Shown here in pieces: positions 50-44,503 of a DNA stretch of 44,553 nt. Positions within the stretch are counted from its first letter, which is position 1. Each line of letters begins with the position of its first letter. The DNA is from a virus: the UHGV virus genome UHGV-0048026; one strand, written 5' to 3'. Made by a program: the position numbers and the translations under genes. The notes below the pieces were generated by a model. The model was not told the DNA's origin. It searched no databases and worked only from the letters and a program-made list of their open reading frames with translations.

Positions 50-634
50 TTACATTGTGTCTGGTTCTTCCGGCCACTCAATATCAGGTGCAGTTGATGT
101 ATCAACACGGTTCAGCAACACCCGATACTTCTTCCAGGCTTCCAGCAATGAGGTCTCTTCCTCCGTTGCGATTTCCAGATCTACAGCATCCTGAAGTGGC
201 GCAATGTGCTCACTGGCTACCTGCATCAGGCTGTTTTTTGTTTCTTCCGCCTCCCGGATCCGGAACAGTTTTTCTGCTTCTGCATCTTTCACCCAGGCTG
301 TGCCGTTCCACTTCTGAAACTCCCCTTCCGGGGATAACCAGGTAACATTTTCCGGTAACGGACCGAGTTCAGAAATAAATAACGCGTCGCCGGAAGCCAC
401 ATCATAAACCGTTTTACCCCGATGATCTTCAACGAGATGCCACGATGACTCATCACTGTTGAAAACGGCCACAAAGCCAGCAGGAATATCTGGCGGTGCA
501 ATATCGGTACTGTTTGCTGGCAGACCTGTATGAGGCGGAACATATGCATTACCTTCACCAATAAATTCATTAGTTCCGGCCAGCAGATTATAAATTTTTA
601 TGGTCCGTGGTTGTTCACTCATTCTGAATGCCAT
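50..634 (-). CDS. tfa: tail fiber assembly protein Tfa
   Basis: 194-aa ORF; sequence ([24 protein letters not shown]...) matches lambda Tfa as recalled; directly downstream of stf. Confidence 0.85.
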
Positions 635-3600
635 TATGCAAGCCTCACAATATAGTTAAATGCGATGTTTTTGACGGTGTTTTCCGCGTTACCAGCAGCG
701 TTAACGGTGATGGTGTGTCCATGTGAGCCAATCGCAACGGAGTGCGTATGAGCACCAATACCGACAGTATGTGCATGTGCGCCTGCGCTTGCAGCAGTGC
801 CGGACAGCGAGTGGGTATGAGCACCATCTGATGATGTCTTCCCTGCATTACGAGTCTGGCCACTACCGCTTGTTGTGCTCATAATCCCCGCGCTTAGATT
901 TGAAATCGCGGTATAACCATTAGGGAAAATGCTCGTGTTCGTGCCACCAAATGCACCGGAACTCTTGTGTTGGTGCGCACCGGCACTATTTGCAGTCCCG
1001 CTAACACTATGGGTATGCGCCCCAGTGTTATTCGTGGATTTAGTGCCGTAATCAAACGACGATGTGGTTTTCGTACCCAAATCCGTACTGGATGCGCTGG
1101 CGCTGTGGGTGTGCGATTTAATGCCGTCCTGTTCCTGAGACAATACGGCCCGACCACTGGCAGGTTTGCCCTTAATCGTCCAGCCACGCATATCAGGGAT
1201 CACGCCTGACGGATAAGCGGCTGCAAGTTTCGGGTATGCAGATTTGTCAAAAGTCTGCCCCTGCATCAGGACATAACCAGACGGAACGGTATCTGATGGC
1301 CACGGGATTGGTGCACCGACTGGATAAAACTCTGCAGGAGGATGAGCCGAGGTGTAAAGCTGCGCCCACGGCGACCAGTTTGCGTCGGTCGTATCCCGTC
1401 GTGAACGAATAAATGCCGGAGCATGAGCACCGCTTGTACCACTCCAGCCGATGAGTAACTCACCTTCGCCAACGGCTGTCATCCCTTTCAGGTGAATGAT
1501 ATTTCCATACGTTGTTGGATATCCGTTGTTATACACCTCGTATAACTCAAGACCTGCTGCCCCCTGCGTATTGTCTGTCAGCGCGGCTACCCGACCTTTT
1601 GAAGCCAGATTAACTGATGATACTGCTGTTCCACCTGACGGTAGCGCCCCGATCTCTGATGCCGTTGGCTTATTTCTGGAGTTATAGTCCCTTCGCCAGC
1701 CAGGTGAATAATCTGTTCCGTGATTAATATAGGTAAACTGGGCGTTGGTTGTTCCGCCACCGCTGGATGTGGTCGGAGTGGTAATGCGGATCGTCATCGC
1801 TGACTTTATCCCCATTACTTCAATGACAGCTCCGGCGAGATGAATATTACCGCAGCCAGTATCAGTAATGATTTTATTATTGCCATAAGACCAGGAACCC
1901 TTGCACATCCAGTATGGATGGTTAAATGCTCCCTGAGAATCCAGCCACTCGATAAACTGTGCAGTCGTCCAGTTTCCTGTTGTTGTGCTTACTGACCCAC
2001 CGAAGGCACGGCAGGCACCAATATTTTTCGTAAAGGTGTCTTTGCCAGGGATATCCGCACCGTTCTGATCTTTCTGCAGACGTTTCTCAGCATTGTCATT
2101 GGCTGCTTTTACTGCCTTTGGCGTTGCCGCCAGCGTTTCAGACGTGCTGTTGGTCGCGCTGCTTAGCTGGATTATCCCTTTCTGTGCTGTCGTTGCATCC
2201 TGTGCGGTGTATTTCCCGCTAGCCAGGTCATACGCGGCCTTAACGGCTTTTGGTGTTGCCGCCAGTGACTCGGAAGTGCTGTTAGTCGCACTACTGAGCT
2301 GTACTATCCCCTTTTTCGTCGTGCTCGCATCCTCAAGCGCCACGGCGGATGCAATATCCTCTGCCCGTTTTGCCGCTGTCTCAGCGCGCGTTGCTGCAGA
2401 TTCCGCCGTACTTTTGCTCTGAGCTGCTGCCTTCGCACTACCAGCAGCCTCTGTCGCCTTCGTGGATGCCGTCGTGGCGCTGCCCTTCGCTGCTGACGCC
2501 TGTCTGGTCGCCTCATCTTTTGAAGCAGACGCCGATGATGCCGATGACGCCGCCGAACTGGCGGACGATGCCGCTGCCGTTTTTGAGGATTCTGCACGGG
2601 TTTCCGACGCTTTCGCGTTCGTTTCGGATGTCTTCGCTGCGGAAGCTGACCTCGCTGCTGCCGTGGCCTGCTCAGTGGCTTCGCCAGCCTTCGTTGTGGC
2701 TGTTGAAGCGGATGATGCGGCGCTTTCTGCCGATTTTCCGGCGGCGGTGGCACTGGCTGAGGCCTGCCCGGCACTTGTTGACGCGGCACTGGCAGACGAC
2801 GCAGCCGCTGTTTTTGAGCCTGCCGCAGCTGAGGCGCTCTGTCCCGCTGCCGTCTCAGAAGACCTGGCGTTCGTCTCGGACGTTTTTGCCGCCTTCGCGG
2901 AATTTCCTGCCGCCGTTGCCGAGGAAGCTGCGCTACTGGCGCTCAAGGATGCGTTCGTTTCTGATGATTTCGCTGCCTCTTTTGAGGCCGCCGCATCCCG
3001 GGCTGAGGTGGCAGCTTCTGACGCTTTCGTGGTCGCGGTGGATGCAGAAGTGGCGGCTGATTGTTCTGACGCTGCGGCATTCGTTTCTGACGTTTTCGCC
3101 GCACCGGCACTGGTAGCTGCCACGCTTTTTGAGGACTCTGCAGCGGCAGCACTTTTTGAGGCTTCAGTGGCCTTTGTTGATGCCGTTCCTGCGCTGGAAG
3201 ACGCTGACTGAGCCGACGAAGCGGCCTGTCCGGCTGACGTGCTGGCTGCACGTGCTGAATCTGCAGCATCAGTCGCATGGGTTGCCGCCTCACGGGCTGA
3301 TGTGCTGGCATCGCTGGCTGACTTCTTCGCGGCTGCCGTGTTCTGTGCCACCGCGGACGCGTTACGCGCCACCTCTTCCACCATCAGTTCAAAACGGCGC
3401 AGTGCCTCAGGACGGGCATCATCCTCCGTCATGGCACCGAGAAAATCATTCAGCGTACCGGGTCGGGAATCTTCATACACGGTGATGGTCCCGGCATGTG
3501 ACGGCGGGAATCCCTCCACCAACAGAATAACGCTGTACTGCCCGTACTCAACGTCCATGCTGTAACGCCCGGCTTCATCCGGATTTTCTGAGGCCAGCGT

Positions 3601-3708
3601 GTTCACCACCACCGTGGTGCTGTTACGTTTTGCTTTCAGCTGGATTGTGCAGTTCTGTACCGGTTTTCCTGTGCCGTCTTTCAGTACACCTGAAATCTTT
3701 ACTGCCAT
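634..3708 (-). CDS. stf: side tail fiber protein Stf, long form with Ala/Ser/Thr-rich repeat region and His-rich distal tip
   Basis: ORF 634..3714 (1026 aa); lambda Stf-like N-terminus [20 protein letters not shown] (start taken at in-frame ATG 3708); C-terminal AHTHS/AHxH repeats resembling T4 gp37-type tips. Confidence 0.85.
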
Positions 3709-3772: not shown

Positions 3773-4372
3773 TCAGAATTTATAACCGACACCCACGATG
3801 AAACCGTCAGTGCGCCAGTCACCACTGCCGGAGCCTTCATAAGCAATATCAATGGCCACGGATTCGGTCGGGTTAAACTGCACGCCAGCCCCCCACGCCA
3901 GAGACGTGTTGCTGTGGCGACCGTCATCACTTCCGGTCAGCACATCGTGCTTTTTCCCCTTGTTGTCAGTTACGCGAAGATAATCCCCGGAGAAAGTCGA
4001 CACACGGCTGTAAGCTACACCCGCCATCGCATACGCGCTGAACCATTCATTCACGCGCACAGACGGCCCCGCCATTACGCTGAACCAGCGGTTACGAACG
4101 GAATCTTCATGCCAGCGGGTATCGCTGTAACGGGTCAGCTGGCGATTCTTGTCTCCTGCATAGCTGAATGACGTCACCAGCCCCAGTGTGTCCGTAAACT
4201 CATAACGGTATTTCACGTTAATCCCGTTCAGATCATCGCTGCCGGGGACGTTCGTCGAGGCATGAAGATACCCCGCGCTCAGCGTGGACTGATGTTCAGA
4301 CGCCCATGCAGGCGCACCGGATACGGCCAGACAAATGGCTGCGGACAAAATTGCTGCACAAACTTTACGCAT
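3773..4372 (-). CDS. lom: Lom outer membrane protein (Ail/Lom family), moron
   Basis: 199-aa ORF with signal peptide (MRKVCAAILSAAICLAVSGAPAWA) and beta-barrel-like C-terminus ending GYKF; lambda position between J and stf. Confidence 0.9.
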   Translation of the reverse strand: MRKVCAAILSAAICLAVSGAPAWASEHQSTLSAGYLHASTNVPGSDDLNGINVKYRYEFTDTLGLVTSFSYAGDKNRQLTRYSDTRWHEDSVRNRWFSVMAGPSVRVNEWFSAYAMAGVAYSRVSTFSGDYLRVTDNKGKKHDVLTGSDDGRHSNTSLAWGAGVQFNPTESVAIDIAYEGSGSGDWRTDGFIVGVGYKF

Positions 4373-19025: not shown

Positions 19026-22706
<3,681 letters not shown>

Positions 22707-22732
<26 letters not shown>

Positions 22733-23252
22733 TCAGCAACCCCGGTATCAGTTCATCCAGCGCGGCTGCTTTGTTCATGGCTTTGATGATATCCCGTTTC
22801 AGGAAATCAACATGTCGGTTTTCCAGTTCCGGAAAACGCCGCTGCACCGACAGGGGGATCCCGTCGAGAATACTGGCAATTTCACCTGCGATCCGCGACA
22901 GCACGAAAGTACAGAATGCGGTTTCCACCACTTCAGCGGAGTCTCTGGCATTTTTCAGCTCCTGTGCGTCGGCCTGCGCACGCGTAAGTCGATGGCGTTC
23001 GTACTCAATAGTCCCTGGCTGGAGATCTGTCTCGCTGGCCTGCCGCAGTTCTTCAACTTCCCGGCGCAGCTTTTCGTTCTCAATTTCAGCATCCCTTTCG
23101 GCATACCATCTTATAACGGCGGCAGAGTCATAAAGCACCTCATTACCCTTGCCACCGCCTCGCAGAACGGGCATTCCCTGTTCCTGCCAGTTCTGAATGG
23201 TACGGATACTCGCACCGAAAATGTCAGCCAGCTGCTTTTTGTTGACTTCCAT
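22707..23252 (-). CDS. Nu1: terminase small subunit Nu1
   Basis: 181-aa ORF (MEVNKKQLADIFGASIRTIQNWQEQGMPVLRGGGKGNEV...), lambda Nu1-like. Confidence 0.92.
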
Positions 23253-23460
23253 TGTTCATTCCACGGCCAAAAACAGAGAAAGGAAACGACAGAGGCCCAA
23301 AAGCTCGTTTTCAGCACCTGTCGTTTCCTTTCTTTTCAGAGGGTATTTTAAATAAAAACATCAAGTTACGACGAAGAAGAACGGAAACGCCTTAAACCGG
23401 AAAATTTTCATAAATAGCGAAAACCCGCGCGCCTGCCGCCCCGTGGAAGGCCTCCCCACC
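23253..23460 (-). other. cos region (cosB with terminase/IHF sites plus cosN); cohesive-end equivalent about 23430..23441
   Basis: reverse complement reads GGGCGGCAGGCG-CGCGGGTTTTCGCTATTTATGAAAATTTTCCGGTTTAAGGCGTTTCCGTTCTTCTTCG..., closely matching the first about 190 nt of lambda upstream of Nu1; 12-nt end differs from lambda GGGCGGCGACCT. Confidence 0.8.
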
Positions 23461-23858
23461 GGAAGGACCCACACAAATGAGAGCATTTATCATTAACATT
23501 TACAGATAAGATGACGTACATCATTGAAACGCCATTCAGCCATATACCGGCAGCATTCGTAGTTGCACTCCGTAACTCTGCGACTAAGGTTAAAAACATG
23601 GCCCTCTTTTGCCACCGGCAAATCTTCAATGGATTTCCCCTGCCGGTTTTTTATTTTCGTCGATGCATAACATTGCATTTACATCAATAGCGGCTATTGT
23701 CATTAGTATGTTGCATCAATGCATGGGTGGTATTGGCGGTCTTCGCCGGCCGCTTCTGTGTAGCTGCTCCCTGTGACCGGTTTTTTATTTCTCACATTAC
23801 AGCAACCCCTTAGAGTGAAGGGCTGCTGTAATGCCTGTTACTCAGTAACTACCGCACC

Positions 23859-24138
23859 TTACGGTAATTTCATGAAGGCAAATACCGGACAGTCCGGATG
23901 ACGAGCATCTTCTGTTGCTTCCAGCATTGACTCACCAAACCACTCCGTCGTGGCGCGACCGTCAGCTGCTTTGTAGTGGATCAAGTACTGGTTTTCGCCA
24001 TCCGCATACTGCGCACGGGCTTTAACCTCACCCCATTCATCACTGATGCGCATCTCCACCAGTTGAGACAACTCAAACTTAAACGGAGCAGCATCAGCAC
24101 CAATTACAATCGGTTTGTTTTCTGTTTTTTTCCATCAT
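23859..24138 (-). pseudogene. small hypothetical gene split by a frameshift in an A7 homopolymer run
   Basis: SD AGGAG + ATGATG at 24133-24138 opens a frame that stops after 14 codons; the downstream frame (ORF 23859..24071, TTG-called start) is reached by +1 shift inside AAAAAAA (plus T7 at 24125-24131). Confidence 0.3.
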
Positions 24139-24309
24139 CGTCTCCTGATATCGAAGCCCGTCGCCGCACCGGGCACTGATCAACATTTGAGTATTCGCGG
24201 CGACAGAAAGAATTTATTTTATTGAATAGCCACTAACACAGAATTTCATGCTTTCCGGACGCTGGCGCACCCTTCATTTTTCAGCAAAATATTCCGCTAT
24301 TACAGATGA

Positions 24310-24492
24310 TCAGTTCTGCAGACACTGCCGAACGCCATCGATAAGCTGGCAGACCTGAGAAGCCGTATCGAAAAGCTGGCGCGCCTTATCCAGGCTGACG
24401 CATCCCACCAATAAAAAAGGCACCAGTATCGCTACCAGTGCCCATTTCGCCGCCGTTCGCGGCATTCTGTGTGTCCAGTGTTTTCTGCTCAT
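24310..24492 (-). CDS. small lipoprotein (o-spanin-like position, 60 aa)
   Basis: internal ATG at 24492, 14 nt downstream of endolysin stop; signal peptide with lipobox LLVGC (MSRKHWTHRMPRTAAKWALVAILVPFLLVGC), two Cys in short mature part. Confidence 0.45.
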   Translation of the reverse strand: MSRKHWTHRMPRTAAKWALVAILVPFLLVGCVSLDKARQLFDTASQVCQLIDGVRQCLQN

Positions 24493-24506
24493 AACACACC
24501 TGGTTA

Positions 24507-24893
24507 TCAGCGTTTCAACTGAAAGTGAGGCCCGTCTTTCAGTGTTTTCCAGTCCCCACCCCATTCGATGGCAGTTCCCAGCTCTGCGGCAGCCTGCTTA
24601 AATGCCTGCGCGATTTTCTCGTACAGAGGCCAGTCCCATGACACCTGGCTGCCAATGTAGGCCACAACATCCACCGCATCACCTGTAAGGTGGCGGCTGT
24701 TCATGGTCTGGCTTTTCCCTGCCGCTACCAGCTGTTTCTGGCGATACTTACTGCGCAGACCTTCCGTGATACCAAAATCAACCTCCGTCAGCTCCAGCGC
24801 ACGGCGAACGACAGCAACCAGCTGTGGTTTGACGCCCTCCAGATTTTTTTCACTGCGACGGCTGAATCTGAATTTACCCGGCATCATATTCAC
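24507..24893 (-). CDS. endolysin, peptidase M15 (L-alanyl-D-glutamate peptidase-like)
   Basis: 128-aa ORF with SxHxxGxAxD motif (SRHLTGDAVD) and C-terminal His (GPHFQ); no TM segment. Confidence 0.8.
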   Translation of the reverse strand: MNMMPGKFRFSRRSEKNLEGVKPQLVAVVRRALELTEVDFGITEGLRSKYRQKQLVAAGKSQTMNSRHLTGDAVDVVAYIGSQVSWDWPLYEKIAQAFKQAAAELGTAIEWGGDWKTLKDGPHFQLKR

Positions 24894-25165
24894 CTCAACA
24901 ATGGAAAGATTTTTGTGACGTTCCCGCGTGCGCGTATCACCAGCACGCAGAACAGCAGGTTAAAAAACACTTCCAGCCAGCCCGTTGCTAACGGGCGACC
25001 ACACAGATAGCTGAGGGGCGCAAAGGCATACAGCAGCATCAGCAGCCAGGCCAGCCATGACATCAGCGGTTTGTGTCTGGAGTCACGACGACGATAAAAA
25101 AAGAGCGTCAGCACGATAACCGTGCATAACGCCACATTCAGCAATCCGGGAAGGTTACTTAACAT
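24890..25165 (-). CDS. small multi-TM membrane protein (holin/antiholin candidate)
   Basis: 91 aa from ATG 25165 with strong SD GGAGGAGG; hydrophobic segments; stop overlaps endolysin start (ATGA). Confidence 0.5.
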   Translation of the reverse strand: MLSNLPGLLNVALCTVIVLTLFFYRRRDSRHKPLMSWLAWLLMLLYAFAPLSYLCGRPLATGWLEVFFNLLFCVLVIRARGNVTKIFPLLR

Positions 25166-25547
25166 TGCCGCCTCCTCCACCCCGCAGGCGGGAGAACACA
25201 CCGGACACCAGTGATGCAATATCCTGCTGGTGGATGAACGACAGAATCTTCACCGACACCACCGATACCAGCACCGCACACAGCGCATCTGCCGATGTAC
25301 CGTCATACCCTGTTGTTGATGCAATCCAGGCTGACAGCACGCGCGCCCCCAGCACGCCGACGATAAACGACACCAAAAAATGCGCCACCACGCGCCAGAC
25401 TGAAATCTTCTGCGGCATCGTTGCCACAAATAACGCCCCGGCGAACGCACCAAACACAATCCCGAAATCCGTTCCGGTAAACAGCCCGAATACCGTCGCC
25501 CCGCCGAGCGCCGCAGCCGTGCCGGAACCGGATAAGGGTTCAGACAT
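25155..25547 (-). CDS. putative holin (Gly-rich multi-TM membrane protein)
   Basis: 130 aa from ATG 25547 (MSEPLSGSGTAAALGGATVFGLFTG...) with SD AGGAG; 3-4 predicted hydrophobic helices; upstream of endolysin. Confidence 0.5.
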   Translation of the reverse strand: MSEPLSGSGTAAALGGATVFGLFTGTDFGIVFGAFAGALFVATMPQKISVWRVVAHFLVSFIVGVLGARVLSAWIASTTGYDGTSADALCAVLVSVVSVKILSFIHQQDIASLVSGVFSRLRGGGGGNVK

Positions 25548-25635
25548 ACTTTTTTCTCCTGTAAATAAAAAAGGGCCACCAGCGGCCCGTAAAAACACCC
25601 CGTCAAAGGCACCCGCAGATGCCTTTTGTGTGGTG

Positions 25636-25788
25636 TTATTCAGATTTACGCAGTAAAGGCCGGAGCACGACCAGCGCCATCGCCACCAGCACACCATCTG
25701 CCAGCACCGACATCAGCCGTCCGGTGAAATCCACCGCCACTACCAGAAACAGCAGGATGGCAGCCAGCACAAGGCGCGCACTTTTCAC
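25636..25788 (-). CDS. small hydrophobic protein (50 aa, GTG start), lysis-cassette membrane component candidate
   Basis: GTG at 25788 overlaps stop of upstream gene (GTGA), SD GGAG 7 nt upstream; VKSARLVLAAILLFLVVAVDFTGRLMSVLADGVLVAMALVVLRPLLRKSE; below the 60-aa cutoff of the ORF track. Confidence 0.35.
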   Translation of the reverse strand: MKSARLVLAAILLFLVVAVDFTGRLMSVLADGVLVAMALVVLRPLLRKSE

Positions 25789-26210
25789 AGGTACTGCTCC
25801 AGCGGTAGCTGAAGCGCCTGCGCAATTTTCTTGAGCTGTGTTTCTTCATCCGGACCAATGCCATCCTGGTCAGCGATATCCAGACACAGGCACAGCACAT
25901 TAACTGCGTCATCAGTACCTGCCACGTCAGCCAGCTGACGAAGGGCTTCAGCATTGGCAGAGCGCGGCGACGCTTCATAACGGGCGCGGATATTTGCACT
26001 CATTTGTGCAATCTCACCGGAGAACGGCGCAAAGGCAGGAAGTGCTGCAATGGTTTTCTCCAGTACCGCGACTTCTTTCGCGTCACAGGTGTCGTCAGCA
26101 TATGCAATGGAATACGCGCCCCAGACGGTCGCCTCCACTGCGTCGCGGTTCTCCATCTTCTTCACTTCGGTAATGGCCTTGCGGGTTTTCTTTTTGAAAA
26201 TACCAAACAT
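25785..26210 (-). CDS. hypothetical protein, possibly TerB-like
   Basis: 141-aa ORF, SD AAGGA upstream; acidic helical protein; family assignment from recollection only. Confidence 0.45.
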   Translation of the reverse strand: MFGIFKKKTRKAITEVKKMENRDAVEATVWGAYSIAYADDTCDAKEVAVLEKTIAALPAFAPFSGEIAQMSANIRARYEASPRSANAEALRQLADVAGTDDAVNVLCLCLDIADQDGIGPDEETQLKKIAQALQLPLEQYL

Positions 26211-26582
26211 CGTGACTTTTCCTTTTAGTGGGTGAGCCTGCGCCCGGGGGTGACCAGCCCACAGAGAAAGTCACACTGACCATCCCGTAAGCTCACCCCT
26301 GAAAGGCTCTGTGGTTTTTGATGTGCGCCGGGCGTGGCGCAAAGAAATGAAATAAGACTTACCTGAAATTAAGGTTAATCTGAGGATTTAAACCATTTTT
26401 AAAGCTTAGTAATATCAACTCGTCTCCTGAAGGAGACAGATACTTATGATTCTTCATGGACTTTGTCCCGCGGCGTTAATCCGACGGCCGCGCTTTTTTT
26501 GCGCCATATTCATCGCTAACTTACATGGCATTGCCACACGGGCATTATCAGTGTCCGTGTTTCTTTTTTTAGGGTTCAGAAT

Positions 26583-26607
26583 AAAAAAAACCGCCCGGTG
26601 GAGGCGG
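26583..26607 (-). terminator. putative intrinsic terminator downstream of tRNA genes
   Basis: minus-strand CCGCC-TCCACCG-GGCGG hairpin followed by U8 (plus A8 at 26583-26590). Confidence 0.5.
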
Positions 26608-26888
26608 TAAAGGATGTATTTCCAGGTTTTGCTTAGTATATGATTAATCTCAATGTCATTTTTAGCGATGTTTACAACATCGGGATGACACATCACCGAC
26701 CCTGTCAGGAAATACAAAATCTCCACCGACAATGCGCCATTCCGATGTTATAAAAAATCAGCACTGATACCGTAATAAATAACATTCATTACAGGACGGG
26801 ATGTAGTAAGGAGTCAGGGTAAAACAAAAACATCCCACACATATAATGTGTCAGTGCCTAACACAACCTAGCATCTATTGTCCTCGGC

Positions 26889-26963
<75 letters not shown>

Positions 26964-26966
26964 ATA

Positions 26967-27042
26967 TGGTGCCGACTACCGGAATCGAACTGGCGACCCG
27001 GTGATTACAAGTCAGTTGCTTTGTCTGCTAAGTTAAATCGGC
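26967..27042 (-). tRNA. tRNA-like sequence, anticodon loop CUUGUAA (UGU, Thr-type) with mismatched stems; possibly pseudo-tRNA
   Basis: 76 nt, 3 nt from tRNA-Gly; good acceptor stem (GCCGATT/AGTCGGC), GTTCGATTC T-loop and CCA, but only 3 of 5 anticodon-stem pairs and mismatches in D and T stems. Confidence 0.4.
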
Positions 27043-27223
27043 AACGGTTCCTCGGAAAAAATAAAACGACCGATATATGCATTATTTCCCTGTCATCTCC
27101 TCGGAACTGACTATTGATATTAATGAGGGCAAACACTATTTCAATAAACATAGTGTCAATATTAGTAAATATATGTATAAATTTCTATCACTCGTGATTG
27201 ATTACAAATAATCACACACATAT

Positions 27224-28270
27224 TTAACTATTTTCTTTTATTTCGCTTACAGTCTGGTTAAATCTCTCTTCTTCCTGCTCCACACCTATTGCATGCCGTC
27301 CCAGCGATAATGCTGCTTTTATTGTTGATCCCGACCCCATAAAAAAATCAGCAACCAAATCTCCCGGATGGCTGCTGGCGGTAATTATCTGACGCAACAT
27401 ATCCGCCGGTTTCTCACAGGGATGTTTGCCGGGGTAATACTGCACAGGCTTGTGCGTCCAGACATCCGTATACGGAACAGCTGCCGATACGGAAAAATAA
27501 CGCCGCAGGGATTTGTACTCTTCCAGCAGGCTGGCATATTGCCGGTTCAGTTCACTGTATGTGCTGACCAGCTGGTGGTGCGGCTTTTCCAGTTCACCGC
27601 GTTGATGTTTTTCTGCTGCAACACGCGCAAACAACGCCTGTAATTTCAGATAATCGCCTTCGTTCGGCAACTGCCACTGACTGATACCAAACCAGTGCGA
27701 AGCCATGTTTTTCTTTCCGGTGACTTCCGCTATCTGTTTTGACGTTATACCCAGTGATTCACGCGCATCACGAAAGTAAGAAATCAGCGGAGCCATCACG
27801 TGCTGCTTAAGCTCGCGCCCCTTTGCCGCATAGCCGTCATTTTTTGGCTGATATGGCCCCTGATAATGTTCAGCAAACAGAATGCGTTCTGTTGCCGGAA
27901 AATACGCCCGCAGGCTTTCCTTGTTGCACCCGTTCCAGCGCCCGGACGGCTTCGCCCAGATAATATGGTTCAGCACATTAAAGCGCTCACGCATCATGAT
28001 TTCGATATCAGATGCCAGGCGATGACCACAGAACAGGTAGAGACTTCCGGCAGGTTTCAGTACCCGCCAGAATTGCGCCAGACACTGATCCAGCCATTTC
28101 AGGTAATCATCGTCGCCCTTCCACTGGTTATCCCAGCCCTCGGGCTTCACTTTAAAGTATGGCGGGTCTGTGACTATCAGATCGACAGAGTTTTCCGGTA
28201 AGGTCTGGATAAATTCCAGGCAATCAGCGTTGATTAACTCACAACTGGATATTTTTACAGTATTAGCCAT
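27224..28270 (-). CDS. orphan DNA methyltransferase (N6-adenine or N4-cytosine, beta-class motif order)
   Basis: 348-aa ORF; motif IV DPPY near N-terminus (LIVTDPPYF), motif I FxGxG near C-terminus (FFMGSGST); no adjacent restriction endonuclease. Confidence 0.85.
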   Translation of the reverse strand: MANTVKISSCELINADCLEFIQTLPENSVDLIVTDPPYFKVKPEGWDNQWKGDDDYLKWLDQCLAQFWRVLKPAGSLYLFCGHRLASDIEIMMRERFNVLNHIIWAKPSGRWNGCNKESLRAYFPATERILFAEHYQGPYQPKNDGYAAKGRELKQHVMAPLISYFRDARESLGITSKQIAEVTGKKNMASHWFGISQWQLPNEGDYLKLQALFARVAAEKHQRGELEKPHHQLVSTYSELNRQYASLLEEYKSLRRYFSVSAAVPYTDVWTHKPVQYYPGKHPCEKPADMLRQIITASSHPGDLVADFFMGSGSTIKAALSLGRHAIGVEQEEERFNQTVSEIKENS

Positions 28271-28875: not shown

Positions 28876-30070
<1,195 letters not shown>

Positions 30071-30220
30071 TTAGATATTTTAGATATTTTAGATATTTTA
30101 GATATTTTAGATATTTTAGATATTTTAGATATTTTAGATATTTTAGATATTTTAGATGTTTTAGATGTTTTAGATGTTTTAGATGTTTTAGATGTTTTAG
30201 ATATTTTAGATATTTTAGAT
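30071..30220. repeat. 9-bp tandem repeat array, about 16.5 copies (TTAGATATT x9, TTAGATGTT x5, TTAGATATT x2, partial)
   Basis: perfect head-to-tail 9-mers read directly from sequence; first unit supplies the IS5 target duplication; array ends about 180 bp upstream of porin ATG. Confidence 0.95.
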
Positions 30221-30399
30221 AAATACTGCATTGAAAATTATCACCAATATTTAACACCACACATAAATGTGATATTGATCACACTATAAACCCTTAAATA
30301 AACCCCATATCTTGAAATAACAGTACCGATTAGATGTATATTTAAGTTGCAGCGACATCATTTTTTAATAATAGTTCCCAAAAGGACTAAGGATTCATA

Positions 30400-31482
30400 A
30401 TGAAAAAATTAACAGTGGCAATCTCTGCTGTAGCAGCATCAGTATTGATAGCTATGTCCGCTCAGGCAGCTGAGATTTATAACAAAGACAGCAATAAATT
30501 AGATCTGTACGGAAAAGTTAATGCCGGGCACTACTTCTCCTCTAACGATAAACACGATGGTGACAAAACTTATGCTCGTCTGGGATTCAAAGGTGAAACC
30601 CAAATCAACGATAAACTGACTGGTTTCGGTCAGTGGGAATATGAATTCAAAGGCAACCATGCTGAATCTCAAGGTTCCTCCGCAGACAAAACCCGTCTTG
30701 CGTTTGCTGGTCTGAAATTCGGCGACTACGGCTCCATCGATTATGGTCGTAACTACGGTGTAGCATACGATATCGGTGCATGGACTAACGTTCTGCCAGA
30801 ATTCGGTGGCGATACCTGGACTCAAACAGATGTATTCATGACTGATCGCACCACAGGTGTTGCAACTTATCGTAACAACGACTTATTTGGTCTGGTTGAT
30901 GGTCTGAACTTTGCTGCTCAGTATCAGGGTAAAAATGACCGCACTGACGTAACTCAAGCTAATGGTGATGGTTTCGGTTTCTCCACTACTTATGAGTATG
31001 AAGGATTCGGCGTAGGTGCAACCTATGCTAAATCTGACCGCACTAATAATCAGGTTATCTACGGTAACAACAGCCTGAATGCATCTGGTCAAAATGCTGA
31101 AGTATGGGCAGCTGGTCTGAAATATGATGCGAGCAACATCTATCTGGCTACTACCTATTCTGAAACCCAAAACATGACTGTTTTTGGTAAAAACCATATT
31201 GCCAACAAAGCACAAAACTTCGAAGTAGTTGCACAATATCAGTTCGACTTCGGTCTGCGTCCGTCCGTTGCTTACCTGCAATCTAAAGGTAAAGACCTTG
31301 GCGTTTTTGGTGACCAAGATTTAGTCAAATATGTTGATGTAGGTGCAACCTATTATTTCAACAAAAATATGTCAACTTTTGTTGATTACAAAATCAACCT
31401 ACTTGACAAAAATGATTTCACCAGAAATCTTGATATAAACGCCGACGATATTGTTGCTGTCGGTATGGTTTACCAGTTCTAA
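30400..31482 (+). CDS. outer membrane porin, Lc/NmpC (OmpC/OmpF family)-like, intact
   Basis: 360-aa ORF with signal peptide [39 protein letters not shown] mature N-terminus and C-terminal ...VYQF; SD AAGGA 7 nt upstream. Confidence 0.92.
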
Positions 31483-43189: not shown

Positions 43190-44503
43190 ATGGATAAAGT
43201 CAAATATCCAACAGGCGTCGAAAACCACGGTGGCACATTACGCATCTGGTTTAATTTTAAAGGTAAACGTGTCAGGGAAAATCTTGGTGTCCCTGACACT
43301 GCCAAGAACAGGAAGATCGCCGGAGAGCTGCGGACATCTGTATGTTTTGCTATTCGTACAGGAAACTTTGATTACGCTGCGCAGTTCCCTGACTCTCCTA
43401 ACCTCAAGGCTTTTGGGGTAAATAAAAAAGAAATTACGGTGAAGGAACTTGAAGAAAAGTGGCTGGATCTGAAACGAATGGAAATCTCTGCAAATGCATT
43501 CAATCGCTATGAATCCGTTGCAAGAACGATGGTTCCGAAAATTGGAGGCAGCAGACTGGTGTCATCGGTAACTAAAGAGGAATTGCTGTATATCAGGAAA
43601 GATTTGCTGACCGGGTATCAGAATTCAACGAAAAACAAAGCAGCAGCAAAAGGACGGAGCGTCGTTACTGTAAATTATTACATGACGACAATCGCTGGAA
43701 TGTTTCAGTTTGCTGCAGATCACGGTTACTTAGAAGCAAATCCCTTCCAGGGAATTAAGCCTCTTAAAAGAGCCAGGGCAGAGCCAGATCCGCTAACTCG
43801 TGACGAATTTATTCGCCTGATAGATGCTTGCCGACATCAGCAGACGAAAAACCTGTGGTCATTGGCTGTGTACACAGGAATGCGTCACGGTGAACTGGTC
43901 TCCCTGGCCTGGGAAGATATCGATCTGAAAGCAGGAACTATTACTATCAGGCGCAATTATACGAAACTCGGTGAGTTCACTCTACCTAAAACTGAAGCAA
44001 GTACAAACAGGGTTGTGCATCTTATCCAGCCTGCTATCAGTGTCCTGAAAAATCAGGCTGAAATGACAAGACTGGGTAAGCAGCACCACATCAAGGTTCA
44101 ACTACGTGAATATGGGCGTTCAGTGAATCATGAATGTACTTTCGTATTTAACCCCCAGGTGGTTAGAAAAAGCAAACAGGTCGGTTTTATCTACAAGGTA
44201 GATTCCATTGGCGACTCATGGGAAACAGCCATTAAGCGTGCGGGCATCAGGCACCGGAAAGCATACCAGTCACGACACACTTATGCGTGCTGGTCATTAT
44301 CTGCCGGAGCAAACCCAAGCTTCATTGCCAGCCAGATGGGCCATGCAAGTGCCCAGATGGTGTTCAATGTATACGGAGCATGGATGACTGACAGTAATGC
44401 AGAACAGATCGCAATGCTGAATCAGAAGCTGGCAGATTATGTCCCAATGATGTCCCATGGTCACCAAAGTGACACAAGAGACTTATTAAAATCAGTGGGT
44501 TAG
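43190..44503 (+). CDS. int: tyrosine site-specific integrase
   Basis: 437-aa ORF; C-terminal catalytic boxes (MRHGEL..., SRHTYACW, GHASAQMVFNVYGAW with Tyr). Confidence 0.9.
   Translation: MDKVKYPTGVENHGGTLRIWFNFKGKRVRENLGVPDTAKNRKIAGELRTSVCFAIRTGNFDYAAQFPDSPNLKAFGVNKKEITVKELEEKWLDLKRMEISANAFNRYESVARTMVPKIGGSRLVSSVTKEELLYIRKDLLTGYQNSTKNKAAAKGRSVVTVNYYMTTIAGMFQFAADHGYLEANPFQGIKPLKRARAEPDPLTRDEFIRLIDACRHQQTKNLWSLAVYTGMRHGELVSLAWEDIDLKAGTITIRRNYTKLGEFTLPKTEASTNRVVHLIQPAISVLKNQAEMTRLGKQHHIKVQLREYGRSVNHECTFVFNPQVVRKSKQVGFIYKVDSIGDSWETAIKRAGIRHRKAYQSRHTYACWSLSAGANPSFIASQMGHASAQMVFNVYGAWMTDSNAEQIAMLNQKLADYVPMMSHGHQSDTRDLLKSVG

Follow-up and report, generated by a model that had tools for sequence, protein, structure and literature searches.

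A phiP27-type lysis cassette with a conserved lipoprotein and no recognisable inner spanin in a lambdoid prophage of Escherichia coli SE11

Introduction

Of all the steps in phage lysis, disruption of the outer membrane is understood least. In two-component spanins, such as lambda Rz/Rz1 or mEp390 gp51 with its unannotated 75-aa lipoprotein, an inner spanin (i-spanin) is paired with a lipoprotein (o-spanin) that is encoded last in the cassette and carries a periplasmic Cys. The unimolecular spanin T1 gp11 is the product of a single gene in the spanin position, with a lipoprotein signal and a C-terminal TM domain. Colicin lysis or bacteriocin release lipoproteins (Lysis_col), small Gly/Ser-rich proteins of about 30 mature residues, permeabilise the envelope by a phospholipase A route, and their signal peptides are functionally important in themselves. 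Disruptin (phiKT gp28) lacks a signal sequence and enters the periplasm by way of the holes made by the holin. It was described as a cationic antimicrobial peptide, a short amphipathic helix proposed to act on the outer membrane where no two-component spanin is encoded (bioRxiv 10.1101/515445). In a survey of spanins, no spanin could be identified in about 13% of the phage genomes, 31 genomes in which a lipoprotein lacks a linked i-spanin were left unresolved, and unconventional topologies were considered able to serve as i-spanins (Kongari et al., 2018; PMC6139136).

The same survey lists the Stx2e phage phiP27 as having a separated two-component spanin with a lipoprotein as the o-spanin. Among Stx phages, the Rz family was found in 277 of 279, and a two-member stx2e cluster carries a metallopeptidase endolysin (PMC8136144); the two phages without Rz are probably the two members of that cluster. 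A literature search on phiP27 spanins and orphan o-spanins found no experimental work on the phiP27-type cassette, which brings the problem of outer-membrane disruption into E. coli, and likewise no experimental paper on the families Phage_holin_8 or Phage_holin_3_7.

Results

Gene content of the locus

The window, that is the whole 44,553-nt stretch of DNA analysed (UHGV-0048026), corresponds at 100% identity to a lambdoid prophage of E. coli SE11. All six minus-strand open reading frames reported in a first-pass annotation of this DNA were found where it had placed them, and RefSeq annotates the same six CDSs (Table 1); family matches in Pfam and PHROG, far over threshold for five of the six, show that these are real genes and not chance ORFs. 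The first-pass annotation had read them as one atypical lysis cassette. The gene inventory stands, but the region comprises two late-operon units, a cargo pair and a phiP27-type lysis cassette, and the latter is unusual only when set against lambda. This cassette is of an already known type that is common in E. coli prophages, the block of M15 endolysin and lipoprotein genes being present in 269 (~5%) of the 5426 complete genomes of the species, with two copies in SE11.

Table 1. Features of the late region of the SE11 prophage (positions in the window).
Feature	Coordinates	Strand	Evidence
TerB-domain protein, 141 aa, P1 TciA homologue	25785..26210	-	Pfam TerB, phrog_632
DUF3927 / TciB-like two-TM peptide, 50 aa, GTG start	25636..25788	-	Pfam DUF3927, phrog_1470
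Terminator-like hairpin + T-run, 25 nt upstream of first holin gene	25563..25588	-	pattern scan
Phage_holin_8 membrane protein, 130 aa (hol8)	25155..25547	-	PF16931, phrog_198
Phage_holin_3_7 membrane protein, 91 aa (hol37)	24890..25165	-	PF05449, phrog_217
M15 L-alanyl-D-glutamate endopeptidase endolysin (bond specificity inferred from homologues), signal-less	24507..24893	-	Peptidase_M15_4, phrog_465
Prolipoprotein, 60 aa, in spanin slot	24310..24492	-	phrog_7528, lipobox LLVGC
11-bp hairpin, GCGA loop, then U6, within lipoprotein signal-peptide codons	24408..24443	-	pattern scan
Terminator-like hairpin + T-run, upstream of TerB gene, downstream of tRNA-Gly	26590..26608	-	pattern scan

The closest described relative, phiP27 (NC_003356; L28-L29-L30 and an unannotated lipoprotein), shares ~92% nucleotide identity over the holins, endolysin and lipoprotein, with the same gene order at the same place after DNA methylase and tRNA genes. 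It differs in carrying stx2e in place of the TerB/DUF3927 pair, an insert of 470 bp, antisense gene included, that separates endolysin from lipoprotein, and the head and tail module of a myovirus-type phage. In the phiP27 record L32 is annotated in the wrong frame. In the SE11 prophage an IS5 and a porin gene sit between Q and the late genes, and one pseudogene is present as well; given the IS5 and the porin gene, it may not be inducible.

An optional tciA/tciB-like gene pair

The first gene encodes the acidic protein (22 D+E against 16 K+R) that had been proposed to be TerB-like. The Pfam TerB match scores 28.1 bits (cutoff 24.4) and spans only 47 residues, phrog_632 ('tellurite resistance') matches the full length (E 2.7e-63), and the gene shares ~80% nucleotide identity with P1 tciA. 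The 50-aa peptide, which the first-pass annotation had correctly described as hydrophobic and GTG-initiated, has two hydrophobic segments, matches Pfam DUF3927 (E 2.4e-14) and phrog_1470 ('TciB-like', E 2.5e-24), and starts within a 4-nt overlap with the TerB stop (GTGA). Wherever the flank is complete the two genes are both present or both absent; in the apparent exceptions the TerB match is shortened to 91 residues. The pair occurs in only part of otherwise identical cassettes, as an optional occupant of a late-operon cargo slot, and is homologous to P1 TciA/TciB. These two genes are a P1 tciA/tciB-like cargo (moron) pair and not lysis genes. The identification of TerB was thus right and its assignment to the lysis cassette was not, and since the pair is optional cargo, replaced by stx2e in phiP27, the cassette has two membrane proteins rather than the three that had been counted. 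A pattern scan found no promoter specific to the pair, and a PADLOC scan gave no matches.

A terminator-like hairpin separates the cargo pair from the lysis genes. Its folding is no better than that of shuffled sequences (z +0.34). In relatives without TerB its translated sequence is conserved ahead of hol8, and a terminator is annotated at the corresponding position in HK639. As proposed here, the pair would form a unit of its own, bracketed by terminator-like hairpins, in the slot that holds a toxin gene in other phages, and would have no role in lysis.

Two holin-family proteins and an M15 endolysin

Both remaining membrane proteins, the Gly-rich 130-aa and the multi-TM 91-aa product, proved to be as described before and belong to Pfam holin families. 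By hydropathy, the 130-aa protein has 3-4 hydrophobic segments and a basic C-tail; it matches Phage_holin_8 (E 8.4e-23; 81.2 bits against a cutoff of 26.4) and phrog_198 ('holin', E 4.5e-42) and is 50% identical to mEp390 gp48. The 91-aa protein, with three TM segments, a basic loop and a basic C-tail by hydropathy, matches Phage_holin_3_7 (E 1e-21; 77.2 bits against 25.4) and phrog_217 ('holin', E 2.8e-38), and has relatives in 72 phage records. The genes overlap by 11 nt, and the Gly-run codons of hol8 serve as the Shine-Dalgarno sequence of hol37, whose start is preceded by GGAGGAGG. Profile scores above cutoff, TM segments, a charged C-terminus and a position by the endolysin gene are holin features of both proteins; the profile searches return two holin-family proteins and not a single classical holin. 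The hydropathy pattern of the 91-aa protein suggests an N-out/C-in topology like that of lambda S105. Together the two proteins would take the place of the single lambda-S-type holin of sister cassettes, the 91-aa protein, with its S105-like layout of three TM segments, probably as the hole-former and the 130-aa protein as its partner or antiholin.

The endolysin comprises 128 aa when read from GTG 24893, or 125 aa from the RefSeq start at ATG 24884; ATG 24887 is also possible. Its identification as an M15 peptidase was borne out by profiles (Peptidase_M15_4, E 1.6e-12, 48.2 bits against a cutoff of 25; phrog_465 'endolysin', E 3.2e-75) and by the sequence NSRHLTGDAVD, which fits the zinc-binding motif SxHxxGxAxD. 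The PDB matches were ChiX (5opz, E 1.5e-43), which belongs to the ChiWXYZ secretion system of Serratia marcescens, and the T5 endolysin (2mxz, E 2.8e-23). The likeness is limited to the peptidase, and ChiX functions in chitinase secretion, not in phage release. The protein is predicted to be a cytoplasmic L-Ala-D-Glu endopeptidase, with the bond specificity taken from these homologues, and would be released through the holes to degrade the cell wall. It has no hydrophobic segment, hence no signal or SAR segment, which makes a pinholin system in this cassette unlikely.

A conserved prolipoprotein with a hairpin in its signal-peptide codons

The last gene encodes, as had been noted, a 60-aa lipoprotein (lipobox LLVGC); its n-region is basic and its h-region 14 residues long. 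The signal peptide (24403-24492) is its sole hydrophobic segment, and the mature part of 30 aa (24313-24402), CVSLDKARQLFDTASQVCQLIDGVRQCLQN, contains none. The lipobox cleavage site LLVG|C is followed by V-S, and members of the family have V, A, T, S, G or E at +2 but in no case D. Three Cys residues (C31, C48 and C57) are invariant, C48 lying on a heptad 'a' position of the mature helix. The mature part is amphipathic (muH 0.36; best 18-mer 0.55), with a net charge of 0 here and of -4 to +3 across relatives. AlphaFold2 models the prolipoprotein as one long helix (pLDDT 70), too featureless for a fold search. The match to phrog_7528 (E 9.5e-37) leads to a PHROG family without annotated function, and no Pfam family, Lysis_col included, matched at E <= 0.1. 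An NCBIfam scan gave no informative match. A profile search of 1.84 billion representatives with the lipoprotein returned only 21 matches, with no distant relative hinting at a partner among them.

The gene is under purifying selection, with a pN/pS of 0.18 in its own frame against about 1 and 2.3 in the other two frames (51 alleles). Several frameshifted or fused variants are present in databases; the frameshifted variants P0122, P0126 and P0134 lie in the same cassette types and are thus uninformative on exclusivity with Rz. Conservation is stronger in the signal peptide than in the mature part, and the signal-peptide codons contain an unexpected hairpin (dG -23.3 kcal/mol, z -3.25) that resembles an intrinsic terminator and is frozen at synonymous sites: third-codon-position entropy is 0.30 in the hairpin region against 0.76 in the mature part. 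Its nucleotides are unchanged in homologues with diverged mature domains, and distant members of the family keep or re-design a hairpin. An Rfam scan of 23200-27300 gave tRNA matches only, neither this hairpin nor the one upstream of hol8 being matched.

Distribution of the lipoprotein gene and equivalence of its slot

Here the lipoprotein gene starts 14 nt past the endolysin stop. In all 160 homologous loci it is the last lysis gene, on the same strand and usually within 14 nt of the endolysin stop, and this direct junction is the commonest state, seen also in divergent Lelliottia-like, Salmonella and Citrobacter prophages. The gene follows hol8+hol37+M15, hol8+hol37+GH108, S-type holin+GH108, S-type holin+M15 and, in a fifth combination, an S-type holin with a 175-aa endolysin of a third type. 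Most of the loci are closely related Enterobacteriaceae prophages, so that the linkage partly reflects shared ancestry.

The lipoprotein occupies the slot of Rz/Rz1-type pairs in the sister cassettes of mEp390, HK639 and PhiR12_2. The first two carry homologous hol8 (50% identity) and hol37 (41.6% and 38.5%) genes, followed after the endolysin by an overlapped pair that encodes a 91-aa i-spanin with an N-terminal TM and charged periplasmic domain and a 75-aa o-spanin with the lipobox LIASC. The gene 3' of the mEp390 pair is 66% identical to the gene 3' of the lipoprotein in one locus (L092). PhiR12_2 has the order R, sTM60, 43-aa ORF, Rz, and many E. coli loci have the order endolysin, sTM60, sTM44, lipoprotein. 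Phage GER2 has S/R/Rz, and its copy of the lipoprotein gene contains three in-frame stops and adjoins the terminase, away from the lysis cassette; the decay of this copy hints at redundancy of the lipoprotein with Rz. The argument for mutual exclusion of lipoprotein and Rz rests on this one decayed copy.

Some phages have unrelated genes between endolysin and lipoprotein (KilA-N in pPE4, the antisense gene in phiP27), and homology between relatives begins exactly at the lipoprotein start codon. Both observations also fit an independently mobile cargo gene.

Search for an inner spanin

The absence of a recognisable Rz-type i-spanin, noted in the first pass, holds for the window and extends beyond it. 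The window has no spanin annotation and phiP27 no i-spanin annotation, and none of the ORFs in the 44.5 kb of the window encodes an N-terminal TM followed by a charged periplasmic domain. A TM-plus-charge scan that recovers 4 of 5 positive controls gave no credible i-spanin for the window, the complete phiP27 genome or the 160 loci (from -3.5 to +2 kb). Nested and out-of-frame ORFs in the holin and endolysin genes encode Arg/Cys/Trp-rich products with no TM or lipobox.

No i-spanin/o-spanin pair was thus found, and the sole published i-spanin call for a cassette of this type, that for phiP27, does not stand up. The i-spanin proposed there (Kongari et al., 2018) is a 64-aa TTG ORF that matches no family, lies antisense to a phrog_36812 gene and is missing from SE11 and from 80 of 83 loci; it looks spurious, and the spanin assignment of phiP27 is corrected accordingly. 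Two further kinds of candidate were rejected as partners, 57-60-aa proteins with a C-terminal TM (phrog_4493/1115) and a 44-aa protein (phrog_4906). Both are absent in divergent members and also stand before a complete Rz in PhiR12_2.

Discussion

The position of the lipoprotein gene and its co-occurrence with lysis genes suggest that its product may disrupt the outer membrane without a phage-encoded i-spanin, a reading for which we judge the balance to be even. The 30-residue mature form would, by the +2 rule, end up in the inner leaflet of the outer membrane, would fold as an amphipathic, heptad-patterned helix, probably linked into an oligomer by disulfides through the two further invariant Cys, and would destabilise the outer membrane once the wall is gone, with no phage-encoded inner-membrane subunit. 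The lipobox, the lack of Asp at +2 and the gene distal to the endolysin are features of Rz/Rz1-type o-spanins, and a periplasmic Cys is common to both. Two-component spanins differ in having an i-spanin, and the mature part here is short, helical and proline-free; hhalign detected no similarity of it to mature Rz1 or to the mEp390 o-spanin, and with lambda Rz1 only the signal peptide aligned. A 30-residue helix of ~4.5 nm cannot bridge the periplasm, so that a spanin-like fusion mechanism is not obviously available, and the protein, without the C-terminal TM domain of the unimolecular spanin T1 gp11, is far too short to span the periplasm. With disruptin it shares the short amphipathic helix, but it has a signal sequence, three Cys and no net positive charge; since it is not cationic, a disruptin-like mechanism is not supported. 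Colicin lysis proteins are similar in size, and the unusual conservation of the signal peptide here parallels the functional importance of theirs, but they are Gly/Ser-rich and have no extra Cys. A bolder reading, in our view somewhat less likely than not, would make the lipoprotein a further class of phage outer-membrane disruptor, a one-piece, lipid-anchored, triple-Cys amphipathic helix with an outer-membrane anchor only and no need of an inner-membrane subunit, to be added to two-component spanins, unimolecular spanins and disruptin.

A lipoprotein in a late operon could also be cargo unrelated to lysis, like Bor, Cor or T5 Llp, which act in serum resistance, receptor masking or exclusion; the lambda bor lipoprotein gene has a similar map position. 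The phiP27-type cassette would then be truly spanin-less, and the outer membrane would fail passively or through another factor. Variable upstream neighbours with homology from the start codon on, the decayed GER2 copy by the terminase, the terminator-like hairpin within the 5' part of the gene and a family of no annotated function fit this reading, yet the gene lies on the late-gene strand, mostly starting 14 nt past the endolysin stop or overlapping it, which leaves no space for a promoter, and a pattern scan gave no promoter-like site. It stays with the lysis genes through exchanges of head and terminase modules, the small-terminase (Nu1) match being 100%, ~52%, ~37% or absent, and it stays while holin and endolysin types change. 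Receptor-masking lipoproteins go with tail genes, which is not so here, and an intact copy beside an Rz/Rz1-type pair was found in 0 of 160 loci. We regard both the cargo role and the spanin-less cassette it implies as unlikely. That the lipoprotein is instead the functionless remnant of a defective prophage that has lost its i-spanin seems very improbable: the IS5 and pseudogene of SE11, the frameshifted or fused database variants and the ~470 bp missing relative to phiP27 would be compatible with decay, but those 470 bp hold no credible i-spanin, phiP27 itself, a sequenced phage, has none anywhere in its genome, the direct endolysin-lipoprotein junction prevails in divergent lineages, and selection on the gene is purifying.

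The lipoprotein might, as a further alternative, be an ordinary o-spanin whose inner partner has escaped recognition, be it the phiP27 64-aa ORF, a 57-60-aa TM protein, a holin-like protein, the uncleaved precursor or a host protein. The published listing of phiP27 is in its favour, and in ~40% of E. coli loci a gene for a 57-60-aa membrane protein lies 1-4 nt upstream of the lipoprotein gene; the spanin genes of LambdaSo, at first overlooked by annotation, turned out to be nested between those for holin and endolysin; and the stronger conservation of the signal peptide and the unconventional i-spanin topologies envisaged by Kongari et al. (2018; PMC6139136) count for this reading as well. Each candidate meets an objection, however. 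The phiP27 ORF fails on the grounds given above, the small TM proteins, with next to no residues in the periplasm, are lacking in divergent members and also stand upstream of complete Rz genes in PhiR12_2, the hol8/hol37 products occur in mEp390 and HK639 together with a complete i/o-spanin pair and are replaceable by a lambda-S-type holin, and no nested ORF of the cassette encodes a TM or a lipobox. A hidden partner, in any of these forms, is in our estimate distinctly improbable.

If the lipoprotein does act alone on the outer membrane, its conserved signal peptide or the hairpin in the corresponding codons could be part of the timing of disruption. The block of endolysin and lipoprotein genes is found in phages of the Stx2e (phiP27) and Stx2k (phiSTEC1575) types, and the holin pair is shared by SerU-LTIIb, an LT-II toxin prophage. 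Since Stx2e-type prophages depend on this cassette for the release of toxin, its mechanism has some medical relevance.

Source and gene content of the lysis region

The window is 100% identical to positions 2122844-2167396 of the E. coli SE11 chromosome (NC_011415.1) and contains a lambdoid prophage, with the late genes on the minus strand, an integrase gene at 43190-44503 and tail-fibre genes at 50-3708. The six ORFs outlined in the first-pass annotation proved correct in length, start codon and overlap, and the same six are annotated by RefSeq, the sole difference being the endolysin start (ATG at 24884 vs GTG at 24893). Profile searches for TerB, M15 peptidase and holin families, which that annotation had suggested, returned matches to TerB, Peptidase_M15_4, Phage_holin_8 (hol8) and Phage_holin_3_7 (hol37); NCBIfam and PADLOC scans added nothing. 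The M15 endolysin lacks a hydrophobic segment, which excludes a SAR enzyme and means that a pinholin alone would be insufficient for its release.

Genes and terminator-like hairpins of the SE11 lysis region
Feature	Position	Strand	Evidence or description
TerB-domain protein, 141 aa	25785-26210	-	phrog_632 E 2.7e-63; Pfam TerB 28.1 bits over 47 residues; ~80% nt identity to P1 tciA
DUF3927 / TciB-like peptide, 50 aa	25636-25788	-	Pfam E 2.4e-14; phrog_1470 E 2.5e-24
Phage_holin_8 (hol8), 130 aa	25155-25547	-	E 8.4e-23
Phage_holin_3_7 (hol37), 91 aa	24890-25165	-	E 1e-21
Peptidase_M15_4 endolysin, 125-128 aa	24507-24884/24893	-	ChiX 5opz E 1.5e-43; T5 L-Ala-D-Glu peptidase 2mxz E 2.8e-23
Lipoprotein, 60 aa	24310-24492	-	phrog_7528, a family without assigned function
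Hairpin upstream of TerB	26608-26590	-	pattern scan
Hairpin between DUF3927 and hol8	25588-25573	-	pattern scan
Hairpin in lipoprotein signal-peptide codons	24408-24443	-	pattern scan; 11 bp, GCGA loop, then U6

The interval from the Q antiterminator gene to the late genes contains an OmpC-type porin gene and an IS5-family element, ISKpn26 (29022-31482); their presence there could influence late transcription and whether the SE11 prophage can be induced. An Rfam tRNA match (43.7 bits, E 3.4e-7) at 26970-27042 (-), adjoining the annotated tRNA-Gly and called by neither ARAGORN nor RefSeq, may be a decayed tRNA gene. At 23859-24190 (-), a single-base difference in an A-run close to the 5' end interrupts the homologue of L33 of the Stx2e phage phiP27 (115 aa, phrog_1935), of which a 64-70-aa ORF is left.

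Cassette type, cargo pair and holin genes

The region had been described as an atypical lysis cassette of six genes, a description that stood as observation and only in part as interpretation. The cassette type is already known and common: genes L28-L29-L30 of phiP27, together with the lipoprotein gene that follows them, are ~92% identical to the SE11 cassette, and the M15 endolysin-lipoprotein block is present in 269 of 5426 complete E. coli genomes. The atypical element that was upheld is the lipoprotein without an inner-membrane partner. Of the six genes, the holin-holin-endolysin-lipoprotein block forms the cassette and the TerB/DUF3927 pair is cargo outside it: within the first set of 83 related loci the block is found both with and without this pair, and in phiP27 stx2e occupies the corresponding slot. 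The hairpin between DUF3927 and hol8 is not thermodynamically exceptional in its folding; its sequence is retained upstream of hol8 in relatives lacking the pair, and a terminator is annotated in the equivalent place of HK639.

A second SE11 prophage (NC_011415.1, 1766145-1768054; locus L180) carries the same TerB-DUF3927-holin-holin-M15-lipoprotein block, with identical hol37, endolysin and lipoprotein proteins and a different hol8 allele and small terminase. The deposited "Actinobacillus phage vB_Apl-pPE4" (PP818812.1; locus L003) is 93% identical over 2 kb to this E. coli prophage DNA, and its host attribution looks doubtful.

Homologues of hol8 and hol37 also occur in mEp390, HK639 and phages of Klebsiella, Salmonella and Yersinia. 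Since a single lambda-S-type holin (Phage_holin_3_1) takes their place in several lineages, the comparison suggests that hol8 and hol37 together act as the holin, whether or not an antiholin is among them. Any division of roles within the pair is conjectural; the 91-aa hol37 resembles S105 in its three-TM layout, basic loop and basic tail. A literature search found no experimental paper on Phage_holin_8 or Phage_holin_3_7. The C-terminal Gly-run of hol8 (RLRGGGGGN; 25165-25190, minus strand) is encoded by GGTGGAGGAGGCGGC, which doubles as a strong Shine-Dalgarno sequence for the overlapping hol37 gene, and this second role may be part of the reason why the Gly tail persists.

The terminal lipoprotein gene

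The lipoprotein frame has a pN/pS of 0.18, against about 1.0 and 2.3 in the two other frames, and is thus a real gene; on the same ground, L32 of phiP27 (20630-20785; locus L002 3187-3342), which runs across it, is annotated in the wrong reading frame. The family is small and narrow, with only 21 matches to its profile among 1.84 billion representatives, all enterobacterial or metagenomic and several frameshifted. The mature peptide follows the pattern C-x16-C-x8-C, with three invariant cysteines and no proline, and AlphaFold2 predicts a single helix (pLDDT 70); the peptide is amphipathic and heptad-patterned (a = L34, F41, C48, R55; d = A37, A44, I51, L58). Sorting to the outer membrane is predicted from the +2 residue, which is never Asp in the family. 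The mature part showed no similarity to the mEp390 o-spanin or to lambda Rz1.

The hairpin within the signal-peptide codons (24443-24418, minus strand; dG -23.3 kcal/mol, z = -3.25) contains two G-U pairs, so that proper folding is limited to the sense strand. Its synonymous sites hardly vary (third-position entropy 0.30, compared with 0.76 for the mature part), and this near-invariance extends to homologues with mature domains that have only some 50% of residues in common. Distant members also have a hairpin at this position, one of them with a different stem sequence. The hairpin may account for the stronger conservation of the signal peptide relative to the mature peptide, and could be either a late-operon terminator passed only by Q-modified polymerase or an mRNA-stability element.

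Search for an i-spanin

The earlier impression that no i-spanin is recognisable was substantiated, scans of the window, of the complete phiP27 genome and of -3.5 to +2 kb around the lipoprotein gene in 160 loci each yielding nothing credible. The scan considered ORFs of 75-220 aa (lower limit 60 aa in whole-genome runs) in which a single N-terminal TM segment precedes a charged remainder; it recovered four of five controls (mEp390, HK639, PhiR12_2 and GER2) and missed the DUF2570 protein of P88, an i-spanin-position control.

phiP27 has been listed as a "separated" two-component spanin (Kongari et al. 2018; PMC6139136 supplement), with a 64-aa i-spanin at 20348-20542, without coiled coil, and a 51-aa o-spanin at 20706-20861, whose 30-aa mature part is 83% helical (PMC6139136). 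The SE11 lipoprotein is orthologous to this o-spanin. The "i-spanin" (locus L002 3430-3624) was rejected: it has a TTG start, belongs to no family, is antisense to a 90-aa ORF matching phrog_36812 at E 5e-20, and lies within a 470-bp insert that is absent from SE11 and present in only 3 of 83 loci, pPE4 having a KilA-N gene there. The published i-spanin assignment is thereby corrected. The same study recorded a lipoprotein without a linked i-spanin in 31 genomes, cases that its authors left unresolved (Kongari et al. 2018; PMC6139136). In Stx phages, the Rz family was reported in 277 of 279, and a two-member stx2e cluster has a metallopeptidase endolysin (Pinto et al. 2021; PMC8136144); we infer that these two phages are the two without Rz.

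Position of the lipoprotein gene and natural replacements

The lipoprotein gene invariably closes the run of same-strand lysis genes, most frequently 14 nt past the endolysin stop or overlapping it. It stands last behind five combinations (hol8+hol37+M15; hol8+hol37+GH108; S-type holin+GH108; S-type holin+M15; S-type holin+175-aa third-type endolysin), and its position holds while terminase and head modules vary. mEp390 and HK639, with hol8 homologues of 50% identity and hol37 homologues of 41.6% and 38.5%, respectively, carry a canonical overlapped i-spanin/o-spanin pair after the endolysin, in the slot equivalent to that of the SE11 lipoprotein; the next gene in mEp390 codes for 65 aa and has 66% identity to the gene after the lipoprotein in locus L092. 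Position thus argues for the lipoprotein as the putative outer-membrane component of the cassette.

The gene order is endolysin, sTM60, sTM44, lipoprotein in many E. coli loci and R, sTM60, 43-aa ORF, Rz in PhiR12_2. This swap, with similar proteins before Rz, takes the small TM proteins off the list of candidate partners for the lipoprotein. In GER2, a phage with a standard S/R/Rz cassette, the lipoprotein gene has decayed to an unannotated pseudogene interrupted by three in-frame stops, just upstream of the terminase (locus L008 about 4100-4300; MG710528 about 46790-47000); this is a single case. The 57-60-aa membrane proteins with a C-terminal TM segment (phrog_4493/1115; L048 4826-4999, L062 4662-4996, L175 2501-2829), sometimes accompanied by a 43-44-aa TM peptide (phrog_4906 in lipoprotein cassettes), lie between the endolysin and the outer-membrane gene(s), are common to lipoprotein-type and Rz-type cassettes, and recall the 65-aa Lcc6 required for LambdaSo lysis.

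Possible route of outer-membrane disruption

A lipoprotein in the spanin slot without an inner-membrane partner is a real feature of this cassette and is amenable to direct testing in E. coli. In the sequence of events that we propose, the holin pair would open the inner membrane, the M15 endopeptidase would then degrade the wall, and the outer-membrane-anchored helix, probably a disulfide-linked oligomer, would break the outer membrane without a phage i-spanin. We consider this scheme as a whole about evenly balanced between right and wrong. Architecture, selection and slot equivalence are demonstrated; where the peptide is located, whether it oligomerises and what it does are deduced. The peptide lacks the length needed to bridge the periplasm and is not cationic, both of which count against the scheme; so does its separation from the endolysin by unrelated genes in some phages, as for a mobile cargo gene. 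This separation favours the reading, which we regard as rather unlikely and which runs against the constant terminal position, that the lipoprotein is unrelated cargo and the cassette truly spanin-less.

A partner that escaped recognition, be it a phage protein, a host protein or the lipoprotein's own precursor, appears improbable; the LambdaSo study is an example in which spanins concealed as nested genes, and additional small membrane proteins, can be relevant. That the lipoprotein is a decayed remnant is hardly credible for a frame under such selection.
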